NCBI GenBank assembly: GCA_000091165.1
Contig: FP565575.1
Location: 2,130,001-2,162,000 of the forward strand
Origin: Candidatus Methylomirabilis oxygeniifera
GTDB taxonomy: Bacteria; Methylomirabilota; Methylomirabilia; Methylomirabilales; Methylomirabilaceae
DNA: 32,000 nt
Reading direction: 5' to 3'
Both the position numbers and the translations under genes were made by a program. Of the stretch, positions 2,846-12,566 are shown piece by piece. The notes beneath the pieces were generated by a model. That model saw only the letters and a list, made by a program, of their open reading frames with translations. It was not told the DNA's origin and searched no databases. Every line of letters starts with the position of its first letter. Position 1 is the stretch's first letter.

Positions 2846-5044
2846 CTACCATCCAAGACCATCTTTCCCCTTATCATCCAGCTTCGGCGCAAGTCCTGAT
2901 GGGGAGGTCGGCGACGATTGCATCAGCCGCTCCAGCGTTTCAACACGCTCCCTGAACCGCTTCGTGAGTGCCTGACCCTCCTCCGGCGAGGCAATGACGT
3001 GCGGCGTGATCAGGATAACCAGCTCAGTCCGAATCAGATCCTCGGATGTGTTCCGGAAGAGATAGCCAAGCAGCGGGATCGTGCTGAGAAACGGGATGCC
3101 GCTATAGCCTTTCGACTTGTCGGTTCGGATGATCCCACCGATCACCAGTGACTGACTGTCCTGAACAACGAGGGCCGTCTTAGTAGTCGTCTTGTTGAAA
3201 GAGGCACCGCCCTGAAGAGCATCCGGAACCTCGCCAGCAACACTCGTATTTTCTGTCTCAATGTCCAGGGTGACCAATCGTTTCTCATTGACGTGTGGTT
3301 TGATCTTCAGGATAATCCCAATGTCCTTGCGCTGAAATGTGCTGAAAACATTGGCGACATCGCTGGTCCCTACACTCTGTGTTCCGGTCGGAATCGGCAC
3401 CTCCTGGCCGATTTGAATGTTGGCCTCCTTGTTATTGGCGGTCAACAGGTGGGGGTTGGCTAACACCTCCACCTTGGTCACAGATGCCAGGTTGTTCAAC
3501 ACCAGGCGGAACTGTTCCTTGTCCACGAAGGTCGTAAATGTAAATCCGGAGGGCGGCGCTACTCCACTCGGGTTCTTGAAGGCAGCAATCGCTGCGGCCG
3601 CGGGACCGCCGTGGACACTCGACAGCATGATTGTCCCAGACCTCAACACCTGCTCAAGACTGAAATCGAAAGCATCGCTCAACGTGATCTGCGCCAGCAT
3701 CAGCTCGATCAAGACCTGTTTCGGGACGATATCGAGCTGCTTGATCGTGGCCTCGACGATTTCGTAGTTGCGCGGCGAGGTCTTGATGATCAACGCATTG
3801 GTTGCCTCGTCTGTAACGATGGTCACCTCGCCTACGACTTCTCCAGGCGCTGCCTCGGCACCGGTCGGCGGCACGGGGGCGGCGGGCGGCGGACCCGGGG
3901 CCGGCGGGGGTGGAGCAGTGGTTGTCGACGGTCCGCTCACGCCGGGTCTTGCGGGAGTCTGGCCCGGTCGAGTGCCAGGCGCTGCGCCCCGCACGAGATC
4001 TCGGCGACCGTACAGCGTATTCAGAGTATTTGCCAGGTCGGCAGCCTTCGCGTTCTCGACAAAGTAGACAAAGATCCGCTGGATATTATCGCGTTTGGTC
4101 GGGACATCGAGCGCCTTGATCGTTTCGAGTATCCGTTTGAGCGTAGAGTTGAAGCCGGCGATGATCAGGGAGTTGGTCTCCTTGTGGACGATCATCCTGG
4201 CGCCTTTACCTATCAACGACTGGACAATCTTTGAGGTCTCGTCGGCGGACAGATAGTCGAGCTGGACGACTTGGGTGGAATACCGCTCACGTTCCTCAAT
4301 GCGCTCTTTCCCTACCTGCACATCCTGCGGTTCCTGCTGGGCGACGGCGATCGGAACAATCTTGTAGTAGGAACCCTCCTTCACCGCCGCCAGGTTATTG
4401 ACTTCCAGTACAGACTCCATGATAGACAGAACTTCGCTGGACGGCACTCGAGTTGTCGTCCGCATCGTCACATTCGCCTTAACGCCGGGACCGATAATAA
4501 AATTGATCCGAGTAATGTCGGCGATGGATCGGAGGACCAACTCTAAATCGGCGTTGTCGAAGTTCAATGAGACGTACTGCGGCGCTTCAGGCTGTGGCGG
4601 CACTCCTCTCCCAGCCACACCAGGGCGCGCTCCTAATCCCGCCGAAGGGACAGGCGCGCCTTCCATCATTCCGGCCGATGGTACGGGAACAGGTTGAATC
4701 CCTATTTCCTTGGAGGGAGCGCCGCCTTCGGCCTCTTCGCTCTCTTCGGCGTCTTCTCCGCCGCCTTCGGCCTCTTCGCTCTCTTCGGCGTCTTCTCCGC
4801 CGCCTTCGGCCTCTTCCGCTTCCAGCTTCGACTCAACCTTTTCCGAACGCGCAGGCAGTGCGGCGACGACCGGAGCAGCAGGTGGAGGCGTTGGCGCTAT
4901 GGTCTCAGCCTTCAAAGGCGCCAGTTCCGCTTCAGCCCCGGAACGTCCAAACGTCTGCAGGGCGGTACAAGCGGGAAGGAATACCGCGACCGTTAAAACT
5001 ATAAGAAGAGCTCTTCGGGTAACCAATACTCTCTCCTTCCTCAT
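2846..5044 (-). CDS. gspD: type II secretion system secretin GspD (possible lipoprotein secretin)
   Basis: 732 aa. The secretin C-domain is recognisable (VLANPHLLTANNKEANIQIGQEVP ... GIPFLSTIPLLGYLFR), with N0-N3-like domains upstream. The N-terminus VAVFLPAC is lipobox-like. An alternative TTG start at 5026 has a better RBS (AAGGAG). Confidence 0.95.
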   Translation of the reverse strand: MRKERVLVTRRALLIVLTVAVFLPACTALQTFGRSGAEAELAPLKAETIAPTPPPAAPVVAALPARSEKVESKLEAEEAEGGGEDAEESEEAEGGGEDAEESEEAEGGAPSKEIGIQPVPVPSAGMMEGAPVPSAGLGARPGVAGRGVPPQPEAPQYVSLNFDNADLELVLRSIADITRINFIIGPGVKANVTMRTTTRVPSSEVLSIMESVLEVNNLAAVKEGSYYKIVPIAVAQQEPQDVQVGKERIEERERYSTQVVQLDYLSADETSKIVQSLIGKGARMIVHKETNSLIIAGFNSTLKRILETIKALDVPTKRDNIQRIFVYFVENAKAADLANTLNTLYGRRDLVRGAAPGTRPGQTPARPGVSGPSTTTAPPPPAPGPPPAAPVPPTGAEAAPGEVVGEVTIVTDEATNALIIKTSPRNYEIVEATIKQLDIVPKQVLIELMLAQITLSDAFDFSLEQVLRSGTIMLSSVHGGPAAAAIAAFKNPSGVAPPSGFTFTTFVDKEQFRLVLNNLASVTKVEVLANPHLLTANNKEANIQIGQEVPIPTGTQSVGTSDVANVFSTFQRKDIGIILKIKPHVNEKRLVTLDIETENTSVAGEVPDALQGGASFNKTTTKTALVVQDSQSLVIGGIIRTDKSKGYSGIPFLSTIPLLGYLFRNTSEDLIRTELVILITPHVIASPEEGQALTKRFRERVETLERLMQSSPTSPSGLAPKLDDKGKDGLGW
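4721..4816. repeat. 39-bp tandem repeat, about 2.5 copies, inside gspD
   Basis: Units 4721-4759 and 4760-4798 are identical, with a partial third unit to 4816. On the coding strand they encode EAEGGGEDAEESE x2.5, an acidic linker after the signal peptide. Confidence 0.95.
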
Positions 5045-5719: not shown

Positions 5720-6260
5720 GGGTATAGCCGCTAACTACAACGGTTACCTGCAACTCGGCGCCAATCCTTGGAAAAGAGGCGTTGACCTGGAGCTTGGGAA
5801 CGGTAAGCAGCTTTGAAGCACTCTCGATCTTGTACAGGAAATCACGGAGTTTCTTCAAGTCGGCGTTCAGAGAAAGTTCCACAGCGACCCGCGTAAATCC
5901 CTCCGCCTTGCTTGGCGCATGGATACTCTCGCTAACGATGGTCACTCCGCTCTCTCCGGCCATTTTGTGCAACATGGTCTGAAGATCGGCCGCTGCTAGC
6001 GTCAACTTCTCTCCTGGCAACAGTCGTTGTTGCAGTTGCTTGTACAACCCTTCCGTCTCGGCGAATTTCTTCTCGTATCGTCTCTTCCCATCCACTACCA
6101 GTTGGAAGCGTTCAAAAGCCTGAAGCTTTTCCTGATAGTCGTTTCGAACCGCCACCTGGTTTGAGATGGCTGGGATGATAGCGTAACTAATGATAAGGAA
6201 AGCAACTAAGGCGGCTCCACCACCCACGAGAAACCGACGCTCTCGAGAAGAGAAGGTCAC
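5688..6260 (-). CDS. gspM: type II secretion system protein GspM (PilO-like)
   Basis: 190 aa bitopic protein with an N-terminal TM helix, a coiled coil and a ferredoxin-like C-domain. GTG start overlaps the gspL stop (GTGA). Confidence 0.65.
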   Translation of the reverse strand: MTFSSRERRFLVGGGAALVAFLIISYAIIPAISNQVAVRNDYQEKLQAFERFQLVVDGKRRYEKKFAETEGLYKQLQQRLLPGEKLTLAAADLQTMLHKMAGESGVTIVSESIHAPSKAEGFTRVAVELSLNADLKKLRDFLYKIESASKLLTVPKLQVNASFPRIGAELQVTVVVSGYTLGLEEKSAGA

Positions 6261-7732
6261 GGCCGCTTCTCCTTCGCTCCGGCTCCTCGATTGCGCTCAG
6301 AGCTCGGTACAGATCTGGTCTCAAGGAGCGCCTTCAGTTGAAACTCTTGCCCCTCGGCGCCTCGCTGGGCCACCGGCGAGGTAAATTGGGCGTTTTCGAA
6401 GAGGGGAGACTGCTCCAGAATCGAGATCAAATCCGAGGCGGAACCGGGGATTGTGCCGCCGATCCGGGCTTCCCGTTTCTCGACTGAGAAGAGTGTCAGC
6501 ACCACTCCTTTCGGCAAGATTTGAACCAGTTCGCGCAACACGTCCAGCTTTCTGGTCTCATCCTGATCAATAGTCTGCAAGGTAGCGATCTGGTTTGCAA
6601 GCGTACCGACCTCACCCTTGAGCTGTTCCACCTTGGCCGCCTCAGTCTGTACGCGATGAAGTCTGGCGGTAAGATCGGCGAGATCTCGGCGCTCTCGAAT
6701 CGCACCATTCACCAGAAACACTAACCCCAGGGCGATAATAAGGGCCAAGAGCCGGAAGGTCATAGCGCGGTTCGGGTCTCGGCGAGGGGGAGCCAACTCT
6801 TTGGGGAGCAGATCGATATCGATCGGGAGCGGGACAAGTCCGTGCAGTCCAAGTCCGACGGCCGCCCCAAGGGAATGGACTGTCTGCGGATCTACGTTGT
6901 TGGCCTTAATCCGTCGGAAGGGGTGGAGGAACTCTACCTCAAGACCGGTCTGTTCAGCCAGGTGATGCAGCAGGTCTCCCTTGCCTGCACCCGTCCCAGA
7001 GAGAGAAATTCGTCCTGCACGCTCTCCGCCATCCACTTCAAGCTGGCCGACCAGTGCGGAAAGCTCCGAGACAAGCCGATCAAGCGGCGCAGCCTGACCA
7101 ATAGCAAAGTATTTAGTATATCGCAGGATCCCCTTGTTGGCCAGACCCAACTCCACCTCGCCGTTCCGAAGATCAATGACGGCCCTCAGGGATTCCGCGC
7201 CTCGCTCCTGGTTATAGAGGAGGGCGTTGAGTGACGCGAACGTCGAGACGCCAAGAGCGGTTGGCGTGATCCCCGCCTCCTGCAGTAGAGCGACGTGTCG
7301 ACCGATCTCCTCTTTTCTCGTTGCGGCCAACAGGACAGTAGCCTGTTCGGCATCGTGTGTCAGTACCTGAAAGTCGTACTGCGCCTCCTCAAGGGGGAAC
7401 GGAACATGTCGTTCAATCTCATAGTCCACGATCCCCTTCATTTCCTCTTTACCCACCGCCGGCATGCTGACCGAGCGCATAGTAACGAGACGCCGCGGCA
7501 GGCCGAGCGTTATGGAGGTGGGACGCTTGGGTAACCGAGTCACGAGGCCGGCCAGCCTCTCTTTAAGCACTCCCAGCCTGTCCTTCTCTTCAGCCGGTAA
7601 CGTCTCGATACCCCAATCGAGGAGCTGAATTCGCCCAAACGCCTTACTCAATAAGGCGTGACACAGTAGCCCACCCCGAATGTCGATACCCAAGCCGACT
7701 TTCGGTCTCGGGATCAGCTCATCGAGCTTCAT
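6257..7732 (-). CDS. gspL: type II secretion system protein GspL (PilM-like cytoplasmic domain + TM + PilN-like domain)
   Basis: 491 aa. An actin-like N-domain is followed by the TM helix FRLLALIIALGLVFLV and a periplasmic coiled-coil domain. The ATG overlaps the gspK stop (ATGA). Confidence 0.8.
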   Translation of the reverse strand: MKLDELIPRPKVGLGIDIRGGLLCHALLSKAFGRIQLLDWGIETLPAEEKDRLGVLKERLAGLVTRLPKRPTSITLGLPRRLVTMRSVSMPAVGKEEMKGIVDYEIERHVPFPLEEAQYDFQVLTHDAEQATVLLAATRKEEIGRHVALLQEAGITPTALGVSTFASLNALLYNQERGAESLRAVIDLRNGEVELGLANKGILRYTKYFAIGQAAPLDRLVSELSALVGQLEVDGGERAGRISLSGTGAGKGDLLHHLAEQTGLEVEFLHPFRRIKANNVDPQTVHSLGAAVGLGLHGLVPLPIDIDLLPKELAPPRRDPNRAMTFRLLALIIALGLVFLVNGAIRERRDLADLTARLHRVQTEAAKVEQLKGEVGTLANQIATLQTIDQDETRKLDVLRELVQILPKGVVLTLFSVEKREARIGGTIPGSASDLISILEQSPLFENAQFTSPVAQRGAEGQEFQLKALLETRSVPSSERNRGAGAKEKRP

Positions 7733-8895
7733 ACACCCCCCTGCCTCGGATCAAGGCTCCACAGACGCACGGAGAGTTTCGGTCGGCCGGACGTCCCCTC
7801 ATTTCGCAGGATGGCAGCTATACGAACCGTGAGCCTCGATCCCGTCATCCGCGCAACCGATTCGACCGAAAAATTCGATGAGGTAGCTTTGACAAGTGGA
7901 CCAAGACTGGCGCGGACTTGGCTCTGGCTATCGCGCCCCGACAAACCTGCGCAGCCGGCAGAAGTAAAGAGAACAGTGAGTTGTCCCACCGCATCTCCAC
8001 GAAATGGCTCCCCTGTCCGCCGGCTGAGGACACACTTCGTCTCTACGGCCGTCAGCCCAAGCGCCATCAACACGTCCGGACTTGCCGTATTGATATTCAC
8101 CTGACCGGTGCTATGGAGCGACAGGTGCTGCGCCACTCCAAGGTATTCGCCCGGCTTGAGATCCCGTTCCCACGGTAGCCGGGCTTCAAGCTCCGTCCGT
8201 CGTGGTTGGCTGGCAATATTGCCGTACAGGATTTCCTGGGTTAATCCTCTGATCAGGAGTAGTTCATCGATAGTTTCGAAGCCTCCGTTCTTCGCTCGGT
8301 ACGAGCTGGGGAGGGATAGGTAGTAGTCGTCCTCGGCGCCGCTCATACGATGAAGGTTATCGGTATCTCGCCAGTCCTGAATTGAATCAACGATAGTGGA
8401 CAGAAGCTTCTCATCCCTGACACCTGAGTTGGAAAACAATCGACGAAGCATCGCATCGTATTGGGGAGTTATCTGCCCATCCAGGGGAATCTTGCTCTCC
8501 TCATCCCTGACCGCTACCCAGTAATGTCCGCCGCCTAATGCCACGTTCTCATAGGCAGCCGGATTGGTATGCCAGCGCTCATTTAGAGCATCGTAGCTCT
8601 TCGAGTCGGGCGGGAGATCTCGATCGGCGTTGATGATCTCCGCAGCCGCCCGGTAAATGCCGGCCTCTGCCAAATAGTACGCCTCCGCTTTCTGTTTGAA
8701 GTTGCCCGCCGCAGCCAGCTCTGTACGCATCGAAAAGGTAAAGGTCGTAAATACGACACCTAGAAATGCCAGAATCCAGAGCACGACCACAAGCGCCAAT
8801 CCGCACTCACCAAAAAAAGAGGGTGTGGGGTGTGGGGTGTGGGGTGTGGGACCGAAAACTTGACGCTTGACGCTTGACGCTTGACGCTTCTTCAT
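7729..8895 (-). CDS. gspK: type II secretion minor pseudopilin GspK
   Basis: 388 aa. It has the GspK-type N-terminus G|LALVVVLWILAFLG, the DEESKIPL motif and a large C-domain. The only in-frame start upstream of the cleavage-type Gly is ATG 8895, which overlaps the gspJ stop. Confidence 0.85.
   Translation of the reverse strand: MKKRQASSVKRQVFGPTPHTPHPTPSFFGECGLALVVVLWILAFLGVVFTTFTFSMRTELAAAGNFKQKAEAYYLAEAGIYRAAAEIINADRDLPPDSKSYDALNERWHTNPAAYENVALGGGHYWVAVRDEESKIPLDGQITPQYDAMLRRLFSNSGVRDEKLLSTIVDSIQDWRDTDNLHRMSGAEDDYYLSLPSSYRAKNGGFETIDELLLIRGLTQEILYGNIASQPRRTELEARLPWERDLKPGEYLGVAQHLSLHSTGQVNINTASPDVLMALGLTAVETKCVLSRRTGEPFRGDAVGQLTVLFTSAGCAGLSGRDSQSQVRASLGPLVKATSSNFSVESVARMTGSRLTVRIAAILRNEGTSGRPKLSVRLWSLDPRQGGV
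8821..8850. repeat. heptanucleotide tandem array (GGGTGTG)x4.3
   Basis: Read directly: gggtgtg gggtgtg gggtgtg gggtgtg gg. On the coding strand this is (CCCACAC)n, encoding PTPHTPHPTP in the GspK leader. Confidence 0.95.
8859..8889. repeat. heptanucleotide tandem array (CTTGACG)x4.4
   Basis: Read directly: cttgacg x4 + ctt. On the coding strand this is (AAGCGTC)n, encoding KRQASSVKRQ at the extreme 5' end of gspK. Confidence 0.95.
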
Positions 8896-9731
8896 AACGT
8901 TCGTCCCACCTGTATCGGAAGGACCAGCGGCGGAAGGATCAACTCCCGAATCTCCCGCGATCTCGTCTGCCGAATCGTGAGAGTGAGCTCAACAGCCAAC
9001 GGTAAGCGATTAGAACCCTTCAAGGCGCGCAGACTAGAGGGAGATGGAACGATTCGAGATGGGGGAACAAGCATATCGTCCCTTGAAGGGTCCCACGAAT
9101 CGTGCCATGCGGGGGGGAGGTTTTCCTCCGACCTACCCTCCGGCACAAGGTACCGGAAACGTACCTCCGATATCCGCTCGTCAAGCAGTTTAGCCTGACC
9201 ATCAAGTACAGCCGATGTCGAACCAGCCAGGGGGTAGCTTGTCGTCGCCACCAGTCCCCGATCAGACTCCACAGTATAGCTCACGATTCTGACCATGTGG
9301 CTGAATGGCTCAGCCCCATAGATCTGCGGAAGGGTGGCGAATTCAAGAGAGTCGGATTTACCATGAAAGACCATGACATCCTTATCCTGCTCTTTCACGC
9401 GCAACGGGTAGATCATCGTCAGGTCTCGCGCCAGGGTATCGACAAGAGTACGATTACGCTGGCTCTCTTCCGCTCGCGCCTCCCCACCTTCCCACGATTT
9501 AACACCAATCTGGATAGCCCCCAGTACAGCAACGAAGATCAGGGCGACGATCGTCAGGGAGATCAGAAGCTCAAGCAGCGTAAACCCGGCTTCGCCGGAC
9601 GGCTCCGAGTGTTGAGTGTTGAGTGTTGAGTGTTGAGTTCGTAACTCGAAATGGTCTTCACTTAACACTTGGCACTTAACACTTAACACGTTCTTATTGG
9701 ACGACACGCGTCTGTCCCAACTTCTTTTCAT
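8892..9731 (-). CDS. gspJ: type II secretion minor pseudopilin GspJ
   Basis: Prepilin motif G|FTLLELLISLTIVALIF followed by a GspJ-size body. There is no in-frame start between the repeat arrays and the motif. Candidate starts are ATG 9731 (overlaps the gspI 3' end) or GTG 9689 (4 nt after the gspI stop). Confidence 0.8.
   Translation of the reverse strand: MKRSWDRRVSSNKNVLSVKCQVLSEDHFELRTQHSTLNTQHSEPSGEAGFTLLELLISLTIVALIFVAVLGAIQIGVKSWEGGEARAEESQRNRTLVDTLARDLTMIYPLRVKEQDKDVMVFHGKSDSLEFATLPQIYGAEPFSHMVRIVSYTVESDRGLVATTSYPLAGSTSAVLDGQAKLLDERISEVRFRYLVPEGRSEENLPPAWHDSWDPSRDDMLVPPSRIVPSPSSLRALKGSNRLPLAVELTLTIRQTRSREIRELILPPLVLPIQVGRTL
9607..9638. repeat. heptanucleotide tandem array (GAGTGTT)x4.6
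   Basis: Read directly. On the coding strand this is (ACTCAAC)n, encoding TQHSTLNTQHS immediately upstream of the GspJ prepilin cleavage motif. Confidence 0.95.
9659..9689. repeat. heptanucleotide tandem array (CACTTAA)x4.4 (second unit CACTTGG)
   Basis: Read directly. On the coding strand this is (GTGTTAA)n, encoding VLSVKCQVLS. It is an inverted copy (6 of 7 per unit) of the 9607-9638 array. Confidence 0.95.
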
Positions 9732-10224
9732 CTACTATCATTCTCAAGGTCTGTAGATTCACAGCCTTCTCTCCACGGCGGCCAGGCCAAGTCACGCGCA
9801 CCTTGACGCTGAAGAGCCGACCGGGAAGTTCCTCCGGTTGTTCGAGCGGCTGGATCTCCGACGCCCAACGGAATCCCCCACCGAACTCTCCTGCCTCGCC
9901 GGTGCTCGCAAGATTCCGCGCTGCGGCAACCTCGGCTATTTTCTGTCGAGCCAGCAGGACTGCTTGAGTGTACTCTTCGGACGCCTTCGCAGAGCGAACC
10001 CCAGCGACTAACAGTTCCACGGCCAGAGCAAACCCGACGCCAAGAATAGCCAAAGCGACGATAACTTCCAGTAACGTAAAACCGTGCGAGGTGCGACAAG
10101 AGCGGTAGGGAGTCCGAAGTGCGGGATCCAAGGTACAACGCGCCCCGAACCTCAAATCTCCCCGTTCCCCCCATTTGTAAATGGGGAGTCGGAGGATGTT
10201 GCACCTGGAACGATTCTCACGCAT
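9694..10224 (-). CDS. gspI: type II secretion minor pseudopilin GspI (start uncertain)
   Basis: Prepilin motif SHG|FTLLEVIVALAILGVG followed by a body of about 125 aa. The track ORF (to 10392) overlaps gspH and is too long. ATG 10224 overlaps the gspH stop by 8 nt and gives a 47-aa leader. In-frame TTG codons at 10155 and 10131 are alternatives. Confidence 0.7.
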   Translation of the reverse strand: MRENRSRCNILRLPIYKWGERGDLRFGARCTLDPALRTPYRSCRTSHGFTLLEVIVALAILGVGFALAVELLVAGVRSAKASEEYTQAVLLARQKIAEVAAARNLASTGEAGEFGGGFRWASEIQPLEQPEELPGRLFSVKVRVTWPGRRGEKAVNLQTLRMIVDEKKLGQTRVVQ

Positions 10225-10801
10225 TCTCTGCGGAACTGATGCGAACGAGCCCAACCGATGGATCCACAATAATTCGATAGCTTCGCCCTTTCTCATCGGA
10301 AAGGTCGATCGATCCACCCGTCGAACTCCCCTGCGGGAAGAAGGCGATGACGCCACGCTCATCAGGTAAAAGGGGACCAGTGGCGAGGACAACGGACTTC
10401 AGGCTTACGCCTGGCGGGAGGGAGCGAACCCGAGCCTGTCGAATCTGAGCCTGCCAAGGCTGTTCGGGGTCTTCCACCGTCTCCACCCGGTCTATACTGC
10501 TGAGACGCCCGACAATCCAGTCCGGACCTCTGAGCCAATAGCGATTGGTCTGTCGGTCGAGCACCACCTCCAATATATCCTGATTGGCGATCGCCTGCGT
10601 TCTGGCAAACCGACAGAGGGTCATAATATCCCTCGTCGCAGCCTTGAGCTGAGTCTGTCCGAATGATCGGCTGAAGGCCGGCGCAACGAGCACGGTTGCC
10701 AGCATAAGGATGAATAGGACGACGGTAAGCTCGAGGAGCGTGAATCCCCTCGTGCATTGTACTGTTCTATTGTTCAGCCTGGCTTCCCGCTTGTTTGACA
10801 C
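10217..10801 (-). CDS. gspH: type II secretion minor pseudopilin GspH
   Basis: 194 aa. Leader (GTG)SNKREARLNNRTVQCTRG|FTLLELTVVLFILMLA, followed by a GspH-like beta domain. Confidence 0.8.
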   Translation of the reverse strand: MSNKREARLNNRTVQCTRGFTLLELTVVLFILMLATVLVAPAFSRSFGQTQLKAATRDIMTLCRFARTQAIANQDILEVVLDRQTNRYWLRGPDWIVGRLSSIDRVETVEDPEQPWQAQIRQARVRSLPPGVSLKSVVLATGPLLPDERGVIAFFPQGSSTGGSIDLSDEKGRSYRIIVDPSVGLVRISSAENA

Positions 10802-11216
10802 TCTTCCAACTCACAACATCCTGATTCTCTCCGTCACCACCCGCTACGCCATCACCGCCATACGAGACAATATCGTAATCTCCATGCTCTCCTGGCGCCT
10901 TATAGGCATAGGCGTGAGTCCACGGATCAACGGGAAGCTCTTGTTTTTTCAGATAGGGACCATCCCAGTTCTCGACCCCGCCTGGATTCACGAGAAGTGC
11001 CCTCAGCCCTTCGTCGCTAGTCGGGTACCGACCAACGTCCAGTCGAAAATTGTCCAGGGCGGCGCCGAACAGTTCAATCTGAGCTTGTGCAGCCGCTTGC
11101 TTACCCTTTCCCACCCTGCCAAAAAGCTTCGGGCCCACTAAGGCCGCCAACAAGCCGATAATGATGATAACAACCAGCAACTCGATAAGGGTGAACCCAG
11201 CCTGATTACGGCGCAA
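10767..11216 (-). CDS. gspG: type II secretion major pseudopilin GspG
   Basis: FTLIELLVVIIIIGLLAALVGPK ... NWDGPYL ... DPW is the GspG signature. TTG 11216, 7 nt after GGGAGG, gives the canonical leader MRRNQAG|F. Longer alternatives are GTG 11273 and TTG 11279 (track ORF). Confidence 0.9.
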   Translation of the reverse strand: MRRNQAGFTLIELLVVIIIIGLLAALVGPKLFGRVGKGKQAAAQAQIELFGAALDNFRLDVGRYPTSDEGLRALLVNPGGVENWDGPYLKKQELPVDPWTHAYAYKAPGEHGDYDIVSYGGDGVAGGDGENQDVVSWKSVKQAGSQAEQ

Positions 11217-11339
11217 GGTCCGGCCTCCCGCTTCCTGCCATATCCGGATATCTTTAACCCGTCGAATGTCCACACTCAACTCCTTTTATTTGGATCCGCA
11301 CTCCATCTCTACGTCGCTTTCGTACCTCACACACCGTGC

Positions 11340-12566
11340 TTAGAGCGGGAGTTCATTGATACTGAAGATGGCAAGCAGCATCGACAGCACAATGAACCCG
11401 ACGACAAGCCCAAGAAAGAGGATCAGGATCGGCTCAAGCAGTGAAGTCAGGCGCTTGACTGTCCGCCGCACACGCTCGTCATAGGTATCGGCGACCTTGA
11501 TCAGCATCTCCTCGAGTTTTCCCGTCTCTTCCCCTACCTTCGCCATATGGATGGAAAAGGACGGAAAGGCGGCGGTAGCCCGCAGTGGGCCGCTGATCCC
11601 TTCGCCCCGTTTTACCCCCTCCTGTAACCTGGACATGGCGGCAACAATGACTCGATTCGCGATCGTCTCCTTGACGATAGAAACAGCCGCGAGTACCGGG
11701 ACCCCGCTTTGGAGAAGCGTCCCGAATGTCCTGGCAAAACGAGAGACCTCGATCTCCTGAATCAGGCGACCCAACAGAGGGAGCGACAATTTCAACTGAT
11801 CCCACTGCACCTTCCCCTGGTCAGTCTGTAAATAGACTCGAAACCCGATTCCAACAAGGCCAATCAGCCCCACAAATACCCACCAGTAACCGGTCGTGAA
11901 CGCGCTGATCGCCAAAAGTATCCTCGTCGGCAGCGGCATAAGCTGCTTCGTGTCTGAGAAGATCTGAGCAAACCGTGGGATCACGAAGTTCATCATGACC
12001 ACCACAGCACCGCCACCAACGAAGAGCAATAGAATCGGATAGATGAGGGCCGATGTTACTTCGTCCCGTACCGCCTTTGAGCGCTCCATAAACCCGGCCA
12101 GCCGTGAGAGGATCACCTCCAACACACCACTTGCCTCCCCAGCCTTGACCATATTGATGTACAGCCTGGAGAAAAGTCGTGGGTGTTTGGCCAGACCGTC
12201 GGCGAATGAATTACCCGCCTGGATATCAGTCAGAATGCTGCGAAGAATCGATCGAAACCGTTGGTTGTCGGTCAGGTCCAACAGAATCGCCAGACTCCGA
12301 TCCAACTCCATCCCGGCCTCGAGCAATGTCGCGAGCTGTTGCGTGAAGGCCAGAACATCCTGGGCAGATGGTCCCCTGGCAAACGTAGTCGGGAGCCGAG
12401 CAGCACTCGGTCTGACCTCCATTGTGCTACCGGGCTGTCCGATCTTGATCGGATAGTAACCGTTAGCTCTGAGCCAAGCCACGACCGCCCGCTCATCGGC
12501 AGCCTCCATGCTACCATGGACGATCTTGGCGGTACGATCAGTGGCGGTATATTGAAATGTCCCCAT
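11340..12566 (-). CDS. gspF: type II secretion inner-membrane platform protein GspF
   Basis: 408 aa with a duplicated GspF/PilC domain and three TM segments. Confidence 0.95.
   Translation of the reverse strand: MGTFQYTATDRTAKIVHGSMEAADERAVVAWLRANGYYPIKIGQPGSTMEVRPSAARLPTTFARGPSAQDVLAFTQQLATLLEAGMELDRSLAILLDLTDNQRFRSILRSILTDIQAGNSFADGLAKHPRLFSRLYINMVKAGEASGVLEVILSRLAGFMERSKAVRDEVTSALIYPILLLFVGGGAVVVMMNFVIPRFAQIFSDTKQLMPLPTRILLAISAFTTGYWWVFVGLIGLVGIGFRVYLQTDQGKVQWDQLKLSLPLLGRLIQEIEVSRFARTFGTLLQSGVPVLAAVSIVKETIANRVIVAAMSRLQEGVKRGEGISGPLRATAAFPSFSIHMAKVGEETGKLEEMLIKVADTYDERVRRTVKRLTSLLEPILILFLGLVVGFIVLSMLLAIFSINELPL

Follow-up and report, generated by a model that had tools for sequence, protein, structure and literature searches.

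What explains two perfect heptanucleotide arrays at the very start of a gene, in a position where the gain or loss of a single unit would shift the reading frame? The question is raised by gspK, a pseudopilin gene of the type II secretion system (T2SS) of Candidatus Methylomirabilis oxygeniifera. The gene lies on the minus strand of a stretch of 32,000 nucleotides (assembly GCA_000091165.1, contig FP565575.1, positions 2,130,001 to 2,162,000), which we analyzed as a whole and call the window. A sequence-only reading of this stretch had described the arrays and compared their geometry to that of a contingency locus. Our analysis leads us, with moderate confidence, to another answer: the gspK arrays are the arms of a palindromic repeat-element family that is tolerated in the disposable leader of the protein, and they act at most as modulators and not as an on/off switch. 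The features of gspK on which the argument turns are as follows.

7729..8895, minus strand: gspK, 388 amino acids including a leader of 32, assigned by Pfam T2SSK_1st and by homologues
8893..8895, minus strand: ATG start of gspK, overlapping the gspJ stop codon TGA (8892-8894); relatives without arrays (leader MKRGGERG) start there too
8859..8889, minus strand: gspK leader array 1, (AAGCGTC)x4.4, period 7, 100% match by Tandem Repeats Finder (TRF)
8851..8858, minus strand: 8-nt spacer between the arms, TTTTCGGT, loop of the predicted antisense-strand hairpin
8821..8850, minus strand: gspK leader array 2, (CCCACAC)x4.3, period 7, 100% match by TRF
8812..8818, minus strand: T7 homopolymer directly after array 2, codons TCT TTT TTT
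8797..8802, minus strand: predicted prepilin-peptidase cleavage site of GspK, with GGA for Gly -1 (8800-8802) and TTG for Leu +1 (8797-8799), G/LALVVVLW (slash, predicted cleavage)

The gene begins ATG AAG, and array 1, the 5' arm, starts 4 nt past the ATG and encodes K-R-Q-A-S-S-V-K-R-Q. Array 2, the 3' arm, encodes P-T-P-H-T-P-H-P-T-P, which gives by translation the N-terminus MKKRQASSVKRQVFGPTPHTPHPTPSFFGECG/LALVVVLWIL. TRF, the sequence and its translation agree exactly on these two abutting arrays, as they had been described. Exact period-7 arrays with four or more copies occur three times in the window, and none has a period of 5, 6 or 8-11. Since 300 first-order Markov simulations of the window yielded no such array, even at three copies, the arrays did not arise by chance. 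Over the 32 kb, TRF found period-7 arrays nowhere but in the leaders of gspK and gspJ. The gspJ pair (9607-9689), which precedes G/FTLLELLISL, had been overlooked in the sequence-only reading. It belongs to the following features.

8892-9731, minus strand: gspJ open reading frame (ORF), Pfam T2SSJ plus N_methyl
9659..9689, minus strand: gspJ leader array 1, (GTGTTAA)x4.4, by TRF
9607..9638, minus strand: gspJ leader array 2, (ACTCAAC)x4.6, perfect, by TRF
9585..9587, minus strand: Gly -1 codon of GspJ, G/FTLLELLISL

The two gspJ arrays are nearly complementary: on the sense strand six positions are Watson-Crick and one is A.C, which becomes G.U on the antisense strand. No heptamer insert is present in gspG or gspH of the window.

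To place these arrays in context, we compared them with T2SS operons from 74 loci of species-representative genomes, 79 metagenomic loci and six more found by exact protein match (labelled L###). These loci are centred on the operon, with flanks of up to 10 kb that include many intergenic regions. In the 370 kb of Methylomirabilis-like DNA, 109 of the 114 period-7 arrays fall in the 160 nt that precede a prepilin-type Gly codon, zones that make up 6.9% of the sequence, and the same zones contain no array with period 5, 6 or 8-12. The arrays comprise 37 distinct unit types, with a median of 4.4 copies. Each of gspG, gspH, gspI, gspJ and gspK bears arrays in one genome or another, and a single locus (L014) has pairs in gspG, gspH and gspI. 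The leaders of GspK homologues in the Methylomirabilis group can be as short as 7 residues (MKRGGERG) or as long as about 70, many of them looking like translated heptamers (NPKPETRNPK, RCEVRGARCEVR, FKVQGSKFKV), and the GspJ leader of one relative reaches about 95. The DNA from other phyla shows a weaker enrichment, with 27 of 74 arrays in 5.6% of the sequence, and there unrelated genes are also preceded by arrays.

The comparison with relatives that have no arrays indicates that the leader existed first and that the arrays were inserted into it. Those relatives read ATG AAA AGG GGT GGG GAG CGC GGA, that is MKRGGERG before the cleavage site, with the ATG overlapping the gspJ stop; gspK of the window retains this ATG and the G-E-C-G codons, and the arrays lie in between. 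The heptamer element is dispensable: 4 of 36 distinct gspK junctions carry the bare 20-nt, 7-residue leader, three others measure just 38-43 nt, and 11 of 22 gspH junctions have no insert.

Are the arrays translated? The 36 distinct junctions from the gspJ stop to the gspK Gly codon span 20-143 nt, corresponding to leaders of 7 to about 48 residues. In 35 of them an overlapping ATG or GTG is in frame with the Gly codon and no internal stop intervenes; the sole exception (L089) has a separate ATG. Chance is excluded as an explanation for this frame, because at least 17 different lengths fall in one residue class. The major class modulo three holds 11 of 19 junctions at gspG, 19 of 22 at gspH, 17 of 24 at gspI and 20 of 30 at gspJ. 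As the start-stop geometry is not fixed at these four genes, the argument from the frame rests on gspK. The units themselves bear the mark of translation on one strand. A stop triplet occurs in the sense reading of 1 of the 37 unit types, compared with 21% expected (p = 0.002), and in the antisense reading of 9. The one stop-bearing sense unit is that of the GTGTTAA array in the window, and the sole deviant unit of this array reads TGC CAA at 9669-9674, exactly where TGT TAA would place an in-frame stop. Array peptides are more hydrophilic in the sense than in the antisense reading (mean Kyte-Doolittle -1.05 and -0.13, respectively, p = 0.004), poorer in leucine (3.5% and 12.4%) and more basic. 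The variants that survive are those in frame and without stops, and the leader peptide is unconserved yet hydrophilic and basic.

The leader of GspK has the features of a prepilin-type (class III) signal peptide, MKKRQ...GECG/LALVVVLWIL: a basic leader, a Gly end and a hydrophobic N-terminal helix. The hydrophobic junction is conserved in about 90 homologues. The ATG at 8895 is the sole in-frame ATG, GTG or TTG from the upstream stop to the gspK Gly codon at 8800-8802. The in-frame start scan thus bears out what had been noted of the ATG overlapping the gspJ stop (ATGA), and the frame and stop data support the earlier proposal that both arrays are translated within a prepilin-type leader. The reference annotation calls GspK from the TTG at 8797-8799 (356 amino acids) and GspJ from a GTG at codon 9 of the ORF (271 amino acids). 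The comparative evidence on frame favours ATG 8895 over the annotated TTG. For GspJ (region 9705-9731), the likely start is the GTG at 9705-9707. Relatives keep it where a stop codon closes off the upstream ATG, as in L160, the closest other strain, and the comparison favours it for this reason.

Neighbouring arrays form inverted repeats. Of 33 such pairs, 23 have Watson-Crick or A.C at all seven sense positions, and just one has Watson-Crick or G.U at all seven; random heptamers give at least five Watson-Crick matches about 8% of the time. Because an A.C on one strand is a G.U on the other, the antisense strand is predicted to fold better, and it does so in 29 of 30 distinct pairs (mean -50.4 kcal/mol, compared with -35.6 for sense). 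The gspK arms of the window pair on the antisense strand only, with three Watson-Crick and three G.U pairs per unit. Their predicted folding energy is -11.0 kcal/mol for sense (z +1.2, less structured than shuffled sequences) and -34.2 for antisense (z -3.0); for gspJ the values are -31.1 and -48.4 kcal/mol. This asymmetry may have any of three non-exclusive causes: selection against hairpins, whether these form in the mRNA or the lagging-strand template; selection against U-containing hydrophobic codons; or selection for an antisense-strand hairpin.

The inverted arms are parts of larger units. In many relatives a core, GTAGGGGCGACCCGSCGGGTCGCCCCTAC or AAGAGGGGAGGACCTCTCAGG, lies between them. 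The GTAGGGGCGACCCGSCGGGTCGCCCCTAC core, with a GTAG head typical of repetitive extragenic palindromic (REP) sequences, is found in L085, L091, L092, L094, L104 and L110, with variants in L016 and L107. It is absent from the gspK and gspJ elements of the window, and all its copies in the operon-centred loci are inside leaders. Units of arm, core and arm, 95-126 nt long, are 88-95% identical between different pseudopilin genes, whose mature parts show no similarity above chance (a forced global alignment gives about 50% identity). In one locus (L096) a stretch of 126 nt is 95% identical between gspI and gspJ; it begins abruptly at the arm, behind unrelated 5' flanks. Whole units recur across genes and form a family of repeat elements, which has spread either through transposition or through conversion among the leaders of paralogues. 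As a separate observation, the gspK leaders of L090 (3394-3486) and L114 (729-821) are about 97% identical and of the same length, next to mature gspK sequences with 77% identity; this points to a recent passage of the leader element, by transfer or conversion, from one diverged lineage to another.

Change in the arms, by gain or loss of units or by outright replacement, is far more rapid than in the remainder of the gene. In L160, the strain closest to the window, mature gspK is 94% identical to that of the window; the gspK leader measures 68 nt, compared with 92 nt in the window, and contains a degenerate GTTCRAG array, and the gspJ leader carries (GGCAGGC)x4.4, unlike the arrays of the window. 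Two further relatives (L105 and L093) have 98.3% identical mature gspK and leaders of 50 and 71 nt, respectively, a difference of 21 nt or three GTGCGAG units. The number of units changes quickly, and the outcomes seen between lineages all preserve the frame.

We propose that a fast-evolving family occupies the leader-coding segments of gspG, gspH, gspI, gspJ and gspK in bacteria of the Methylomirabilis group. The plan of the element would be a tandem-heptamer arm, a short core or loop and a roughly complementary heptamer arm, placed in gspK in frame between codon 2 and G-E-C-G. Its arrays may grow through replication slippage, and the complementarity of the arms may be kept by palindrome-templated repair or by copying of the whole element. 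Selection for a translatable, unstructured and hydrophilic leader would have swapped U for C on the sense strand, leaving A.C mismatches in the mRNA and G.U pairs on the opposite strand. Prepilin peptidase would then remove the leader, and the mature protein would be indifferent to the insert. Because the leader is cut off in this way, it would be among the few refuges for such an element in a tightly overlapping operon.

Several points weigh against this proposal of a tolerated element. Prepilin peptidase is assumed to cleave leaders of this length, and its cleavage of the 32-residue leader of GspK is a prediction. No target-site duplication is recognisable at the L096 boundaries, and no transposase was seen among the window ORFs scanned (no genome-wide search was made). 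The gspK pair, taken alone, has an antisense complementarity of 6 out of 7 including three G.U, for which we estimate a chance of about 0.09, so the reading of gspK as a hairpin rests on the pattern of the family, its own complementarity being marginal. At the level of units, A.C mismatches outnumber transversion mismatches by about 42 to 6, an excess that points to continued maintenance of the pairing on one strand and hints at a function. The location in leaders only, next to hundreds of empty intergenic regions in the same 370 kb, is unexpected for a purely neutral passenger, and paralogue-directed copying or selection is therefore needed to explain it. Finally, arrays upstream of pseudopilin genes in Desulfobacterota suggest a recurrence beyond shared ancestry. 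Period-7 arrays adjoin pseudopilin starts in several T2SS operons outside Methylomirabilis, Desulfobacterota included: L021 (7657-9360), L027, L057, L069 (9129-9225), L034 (9952-9996), L041/L042, L023 and L122 (1411-1696). The array of L021 stands right behind the ATG (ATG ATTCGAT ATTCGAT...), and that of L122 has about 41 copies upstream of gspI and is apparently untranslated. In Desulfobacterota loci, gspF and two genes that are Sua5-like and PNPOx-like, respectively, are likewise preceded by arrays.

A first alternative is that the element is a selected cis-acting structure, either a strand-specific hairpin in antisense RNA or template DNA or an unstructured stretch after the start codon, which tunes or coordinates how the pseudopilins are made from a single polycistronic mRNA. 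We regard this as unlikely, and it is kept alive by two facts, that transition-type mismatches outnumber transversions and that the arrays are strictly tied to leaders. The association is close at the 5' ends of all five pseudopilin genes, and the architecture persists while the sequence is replaced. The first arm starts 4-12 nt after the start codon, the mRNA leader of gspK in the window is less structured than shuffled controls, G.U keeps the pairing on one strand in 29 of 30 pairs, and comparable arrays lie beside pseudopilin starts in Desulfobacterota. Against it, the element is patchy, being missing from gspG and gspH of the window and from gspK and gspH of many relatives, and the asymmetry may also be due to peptide-level selection that disfavours hydrophobic codons, or to selection against mRNA structure. 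A scan for promoters and terminators found nothing near the arrays on the plus (antisense) strand, and an Rfam scan of 7500-11500 returned only sub-threshold, microRNA-like hairpin noise on the gspJ pair. A fuller version would make the elements an undescribed palindromic class with heptamer arms, specific to T2SS pseudopilin leaders of at least Methylomirabilota, with look-alikes in Desulfobacterota, whose in-frame, strand-specific hairpin controls or coordinates pseudopilin production; this we put forward as a tentative idea only.

The contingency locus of the sequence-only reading, in which gain or loss of a single heptamer toggles gspK (and gspJ) in a subpopulation, is in our judgement weakly founded and improbable. 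Its geometry is real: the 7-nt unit, not divisible by three, sits inside a translated segment between the in-frame ATG and the Gly codon, and one unit more or less does shift the frame. The arrays are perfect and hence recently homogenised, and near-identical relatives differ in copy number. Copy number varies between close relatives, as in the three units that separate L105 from L093. Within the species no variant was found: the seven M. oxyfera assemblies retrieved, one contig of which is common to eight samples, have identical copy numbers, although these are consensus assemblies in which minority variants may stay hidden. The protein cluster at 90% identity has no length variant attributable to unit changes, and the variants between lineages are in frame at 35 of 36 junctions, so out-of-frame alleles are not seen at this consensus level. 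With two independent arrays per gene and two such genes, most combinations would be non-functional. The arrays have just 4.3 and 4.4 copies, and at four to five repeat copies slippage and switching rates are low.

Three observations on the assemblies belong here. All Logan contigs break inside the 32-nt ACTCAAC array of gspJ; the contigs of five independent assemblies (L003-L006 and L165) have their first position there, at about 9635 of the window. These breaks could reflect a second genomic copy or a heterogeneity of copy number among the reads, and the latter would speak for the contingency locus. One of the five, L165, from an old run (SRR023516), has T6 for T7 at 8812-8818 and C6 for C7 in gspJ, and its gene calls are split. 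We considered its 353-amino-acid GspK as a frameshifted 'off' allele and rejected it, as it involves just single-base losses in the C7 and T7 runs, and these homopolymer differences are probably sequencing errors. An assembly artefact was likewise rejected for the arrays themselves, which are the same in assemblies from different methods and years.

Equally doubtful is that the arrays are ordinary dispersed heptamer microsatellites with no tie to pilins, the link being produced by operon-centred sampling. Heptamer repeats are over-represented in many bacteria, where they are often intergenic, variable between relatives, sometimes inverted and often near start codons (PMC4692102, PMC4679880), and they are a recognised and poorly understood class. 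The Desulfobacterota arrays before gspF and the Sua5-like and PNPOx-like genes fit this picture, and the sampling is indeed limited to the neighbourhood of the operon. Nevertheless, just 6.9% of the sequence accounts for 109 of the 114 arrays in Methylomirabilis-like DNA despite flanks of up to 10 kb, the 32 kb of the window have arrays nowhere else, and whole elements were copied between pseudopilin leaders. That the arrays are untranslated intergenic DNA and GspK is leaderless from the TTG at 8797-8799 is nearly excluded: the reference genome annotates the 356-amino-acid protein and GGTGAG, a possible ribosome-binding site, lies 6 nt upstream of this TTG, but such a start is made very unlikely by the frame kept at 35 of 36 gspK junctions and the avoidance of stops on the sense strand, and also by the (E/D/Q)(R/C)G motif conserved ahead of the hydrophobic segment and by the use of the same ATG for a canonical 7-residue leader in relatives without arrays.

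The genomic context of the arrays is a T2SS operon on the minus strand, in which Pfam identified gspE, F, G, H, (I), J, K, PilM/PilN-type gspL, M, C and D among the window ORFs. Its genes are on the G-rich strand. Pfam N_methyl matches were obtained for GspG, GspH and GspJ of the window, and no peptidase A24 gene was seen among the window ORFs scanned. The mature N-terminus of GspK in the Methylomirabilis group follows the pattern (E/D/Q)(R/C)G before and (L/M)AL(V/M)VVLWIL after the cleavage site. The identical 388-amino-acid product is encoded by contigs of Methylomirabilis oxyfera (ENA ERZ24907703, NCBI GCA_009026205.1 and several Logan assemblies). Peptides expected from the heptamer-array leaders of M. 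oxyfera include QASSVK and QVFGPTPHTPHPTPSFFGECG. A protein search with an array-encoded peptide was uninformative, returning just spurious ORFs in eukaryotic heptamer satellites, with no pilin motif. The leader of gspI contains an insert of another kind, unlike the heptamer arrays.

10150..10190, minus strand: gspI leader insert, a double-hairpin palindrome, CTCCCCATTTACAAATGGGGGGAACGGGGAG

Its pattern is AAATCCCCCC..CCCCCCTTTnCAAAAGGGGGG..GGGGGGATTT, with the peptide signature PPLxKGGxxGDL. Kin of this palindrome occur in L009 (about 9925-9970), L082 (about 5930-5975 and 11986), L018 (15979), L041, L075 and L076. They lie both within further leaders and outside any leader, and other phyla have them too. 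In the 5' part of gspD (2846-5044, minus strand) there is a perfect 39-nt tandem repeat of 2.5 copies, at 4720-4816.

A literature search returned nothing relevant on heptanucleotide or tandem repeats of Methylomirabilis, or on tandem repeats in pseudopilin leaders. What is new here is the residence in frame within a cleavable leader, the diversity of the units, the arm-core-arm structure across paralogues and the strand-specific pairing. If the elements are tolerated as we propose, a cleaved signal peptide offers a permissive niche for frame-bound repeat elements inside an operon without gaps. The leaders also provide a natural experiment on what a prepilin leader tolerates, namely arbitrary hydrophilic sequence of between 7 and about 95 residues. 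The comparison corrects gene starts in the annotation of Methylomirabilis, where the reference has GspK begin at the TTG and GspJ at an internal GTG. To the poorly understood excess of heptamers in bacteria is added a case in which the repeats are clearly associated with genes and pair in a strand-specific way, a signature that makes a function in regulation or mobility directly testable.

How do the elements compare with systems already known? Two candidates can be set aside. The attC sites of integrons, which are diverse in sequence, conserved in structure and fold on the bottom strand, were rejected because the units do not fit the GTTRRRY/RYYYAAC core sites and the genes form a conserved operon. 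Heptad repeats bound by omega-type repressors were rejected because the units differ between the arrays of one operon.

Contingency loci of Haemophilus, Neisseria and Campylobacter likewise have a non-triplet repeat unit in a reading frame near its 5' end. Compared with them, the arrays described here are low in copy number, show no heterogeneity found within the species, vary in frame between lineages and come two per gene. Repeat geometry by itself does not identify a phase-variation locus.

Heptamer microsatellites of bacteria include the short tandemly repeated repetitive (STRR) sequences of Calothrix and Nostoc (GGGGAYT in Nostoc), GGGAATC of Xanthomonas and TAACTGA of Beggiatoaceae (PMC4692102, PMC4679880). 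They share with our elements short arrays of 7 nt (TRF period 7, with no other period enriched), variability among close relatives, occasional inverted stem-loop pairs and a position near starts. STRR sequences consist of one or few fixed, mostly intergenic units per genome, in heterocystous cyanobacteria. Here the host belongs to Methylomirabilota, the unit types number at least 37, translated and cleavable leaders hold 109 of 114 arrays, the frame is kept and, in the sampled DNA, one gene family is concerned. The STRR analogue offered by the sequence-only reading thus holds in that this is a heptamer repeat family, and does not in that the sampled Methylomirabilis arrays are tied to leaders and built as inverted repeats rather than dispersed between genes.

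REP sequences and REPINs are also short multi-copy palindromes, imperfect and 20-40 nt long in the case of REPs, and the GTAGGGGCGACCCGSCGGGTCGCCCCTAC core of some relatives has the GTAG head typical of them. REPs within operons can affect mRNA stability. They are extragenic, reach high copy numbers across a genome and are mobilised by RAYT transposases, whereas the elements described here lie inside genes, have arms of tandem heptamers and lack the GTAG core in gspK of the window; no RAYT gene was seen among the window ORFs scanned. Miniature inverted-repeat transposable elements (MITEs) resemble them in a length of about 70-130 nt, in inverted ends, in a discrete 5' boundary and in near-identical copies at several sites, here 88-95% identical in different genes. 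They differ in that neither a target-site duplication nor a partner transposase was identified for our elements. Since the copies are seen at paralogous sites only, gene conversion is as good a route as MITE-like mobility. Finally, type IVb pilins likewise have leaders well above the usual 5-10 residues, as does GspK of the window with 32. Those of type IVb pilins are conserved and 15-30 residues long, whereas the leaders described here are encoded by repeats, unconserved and range from 7 to about 48 residues in one orthologue.

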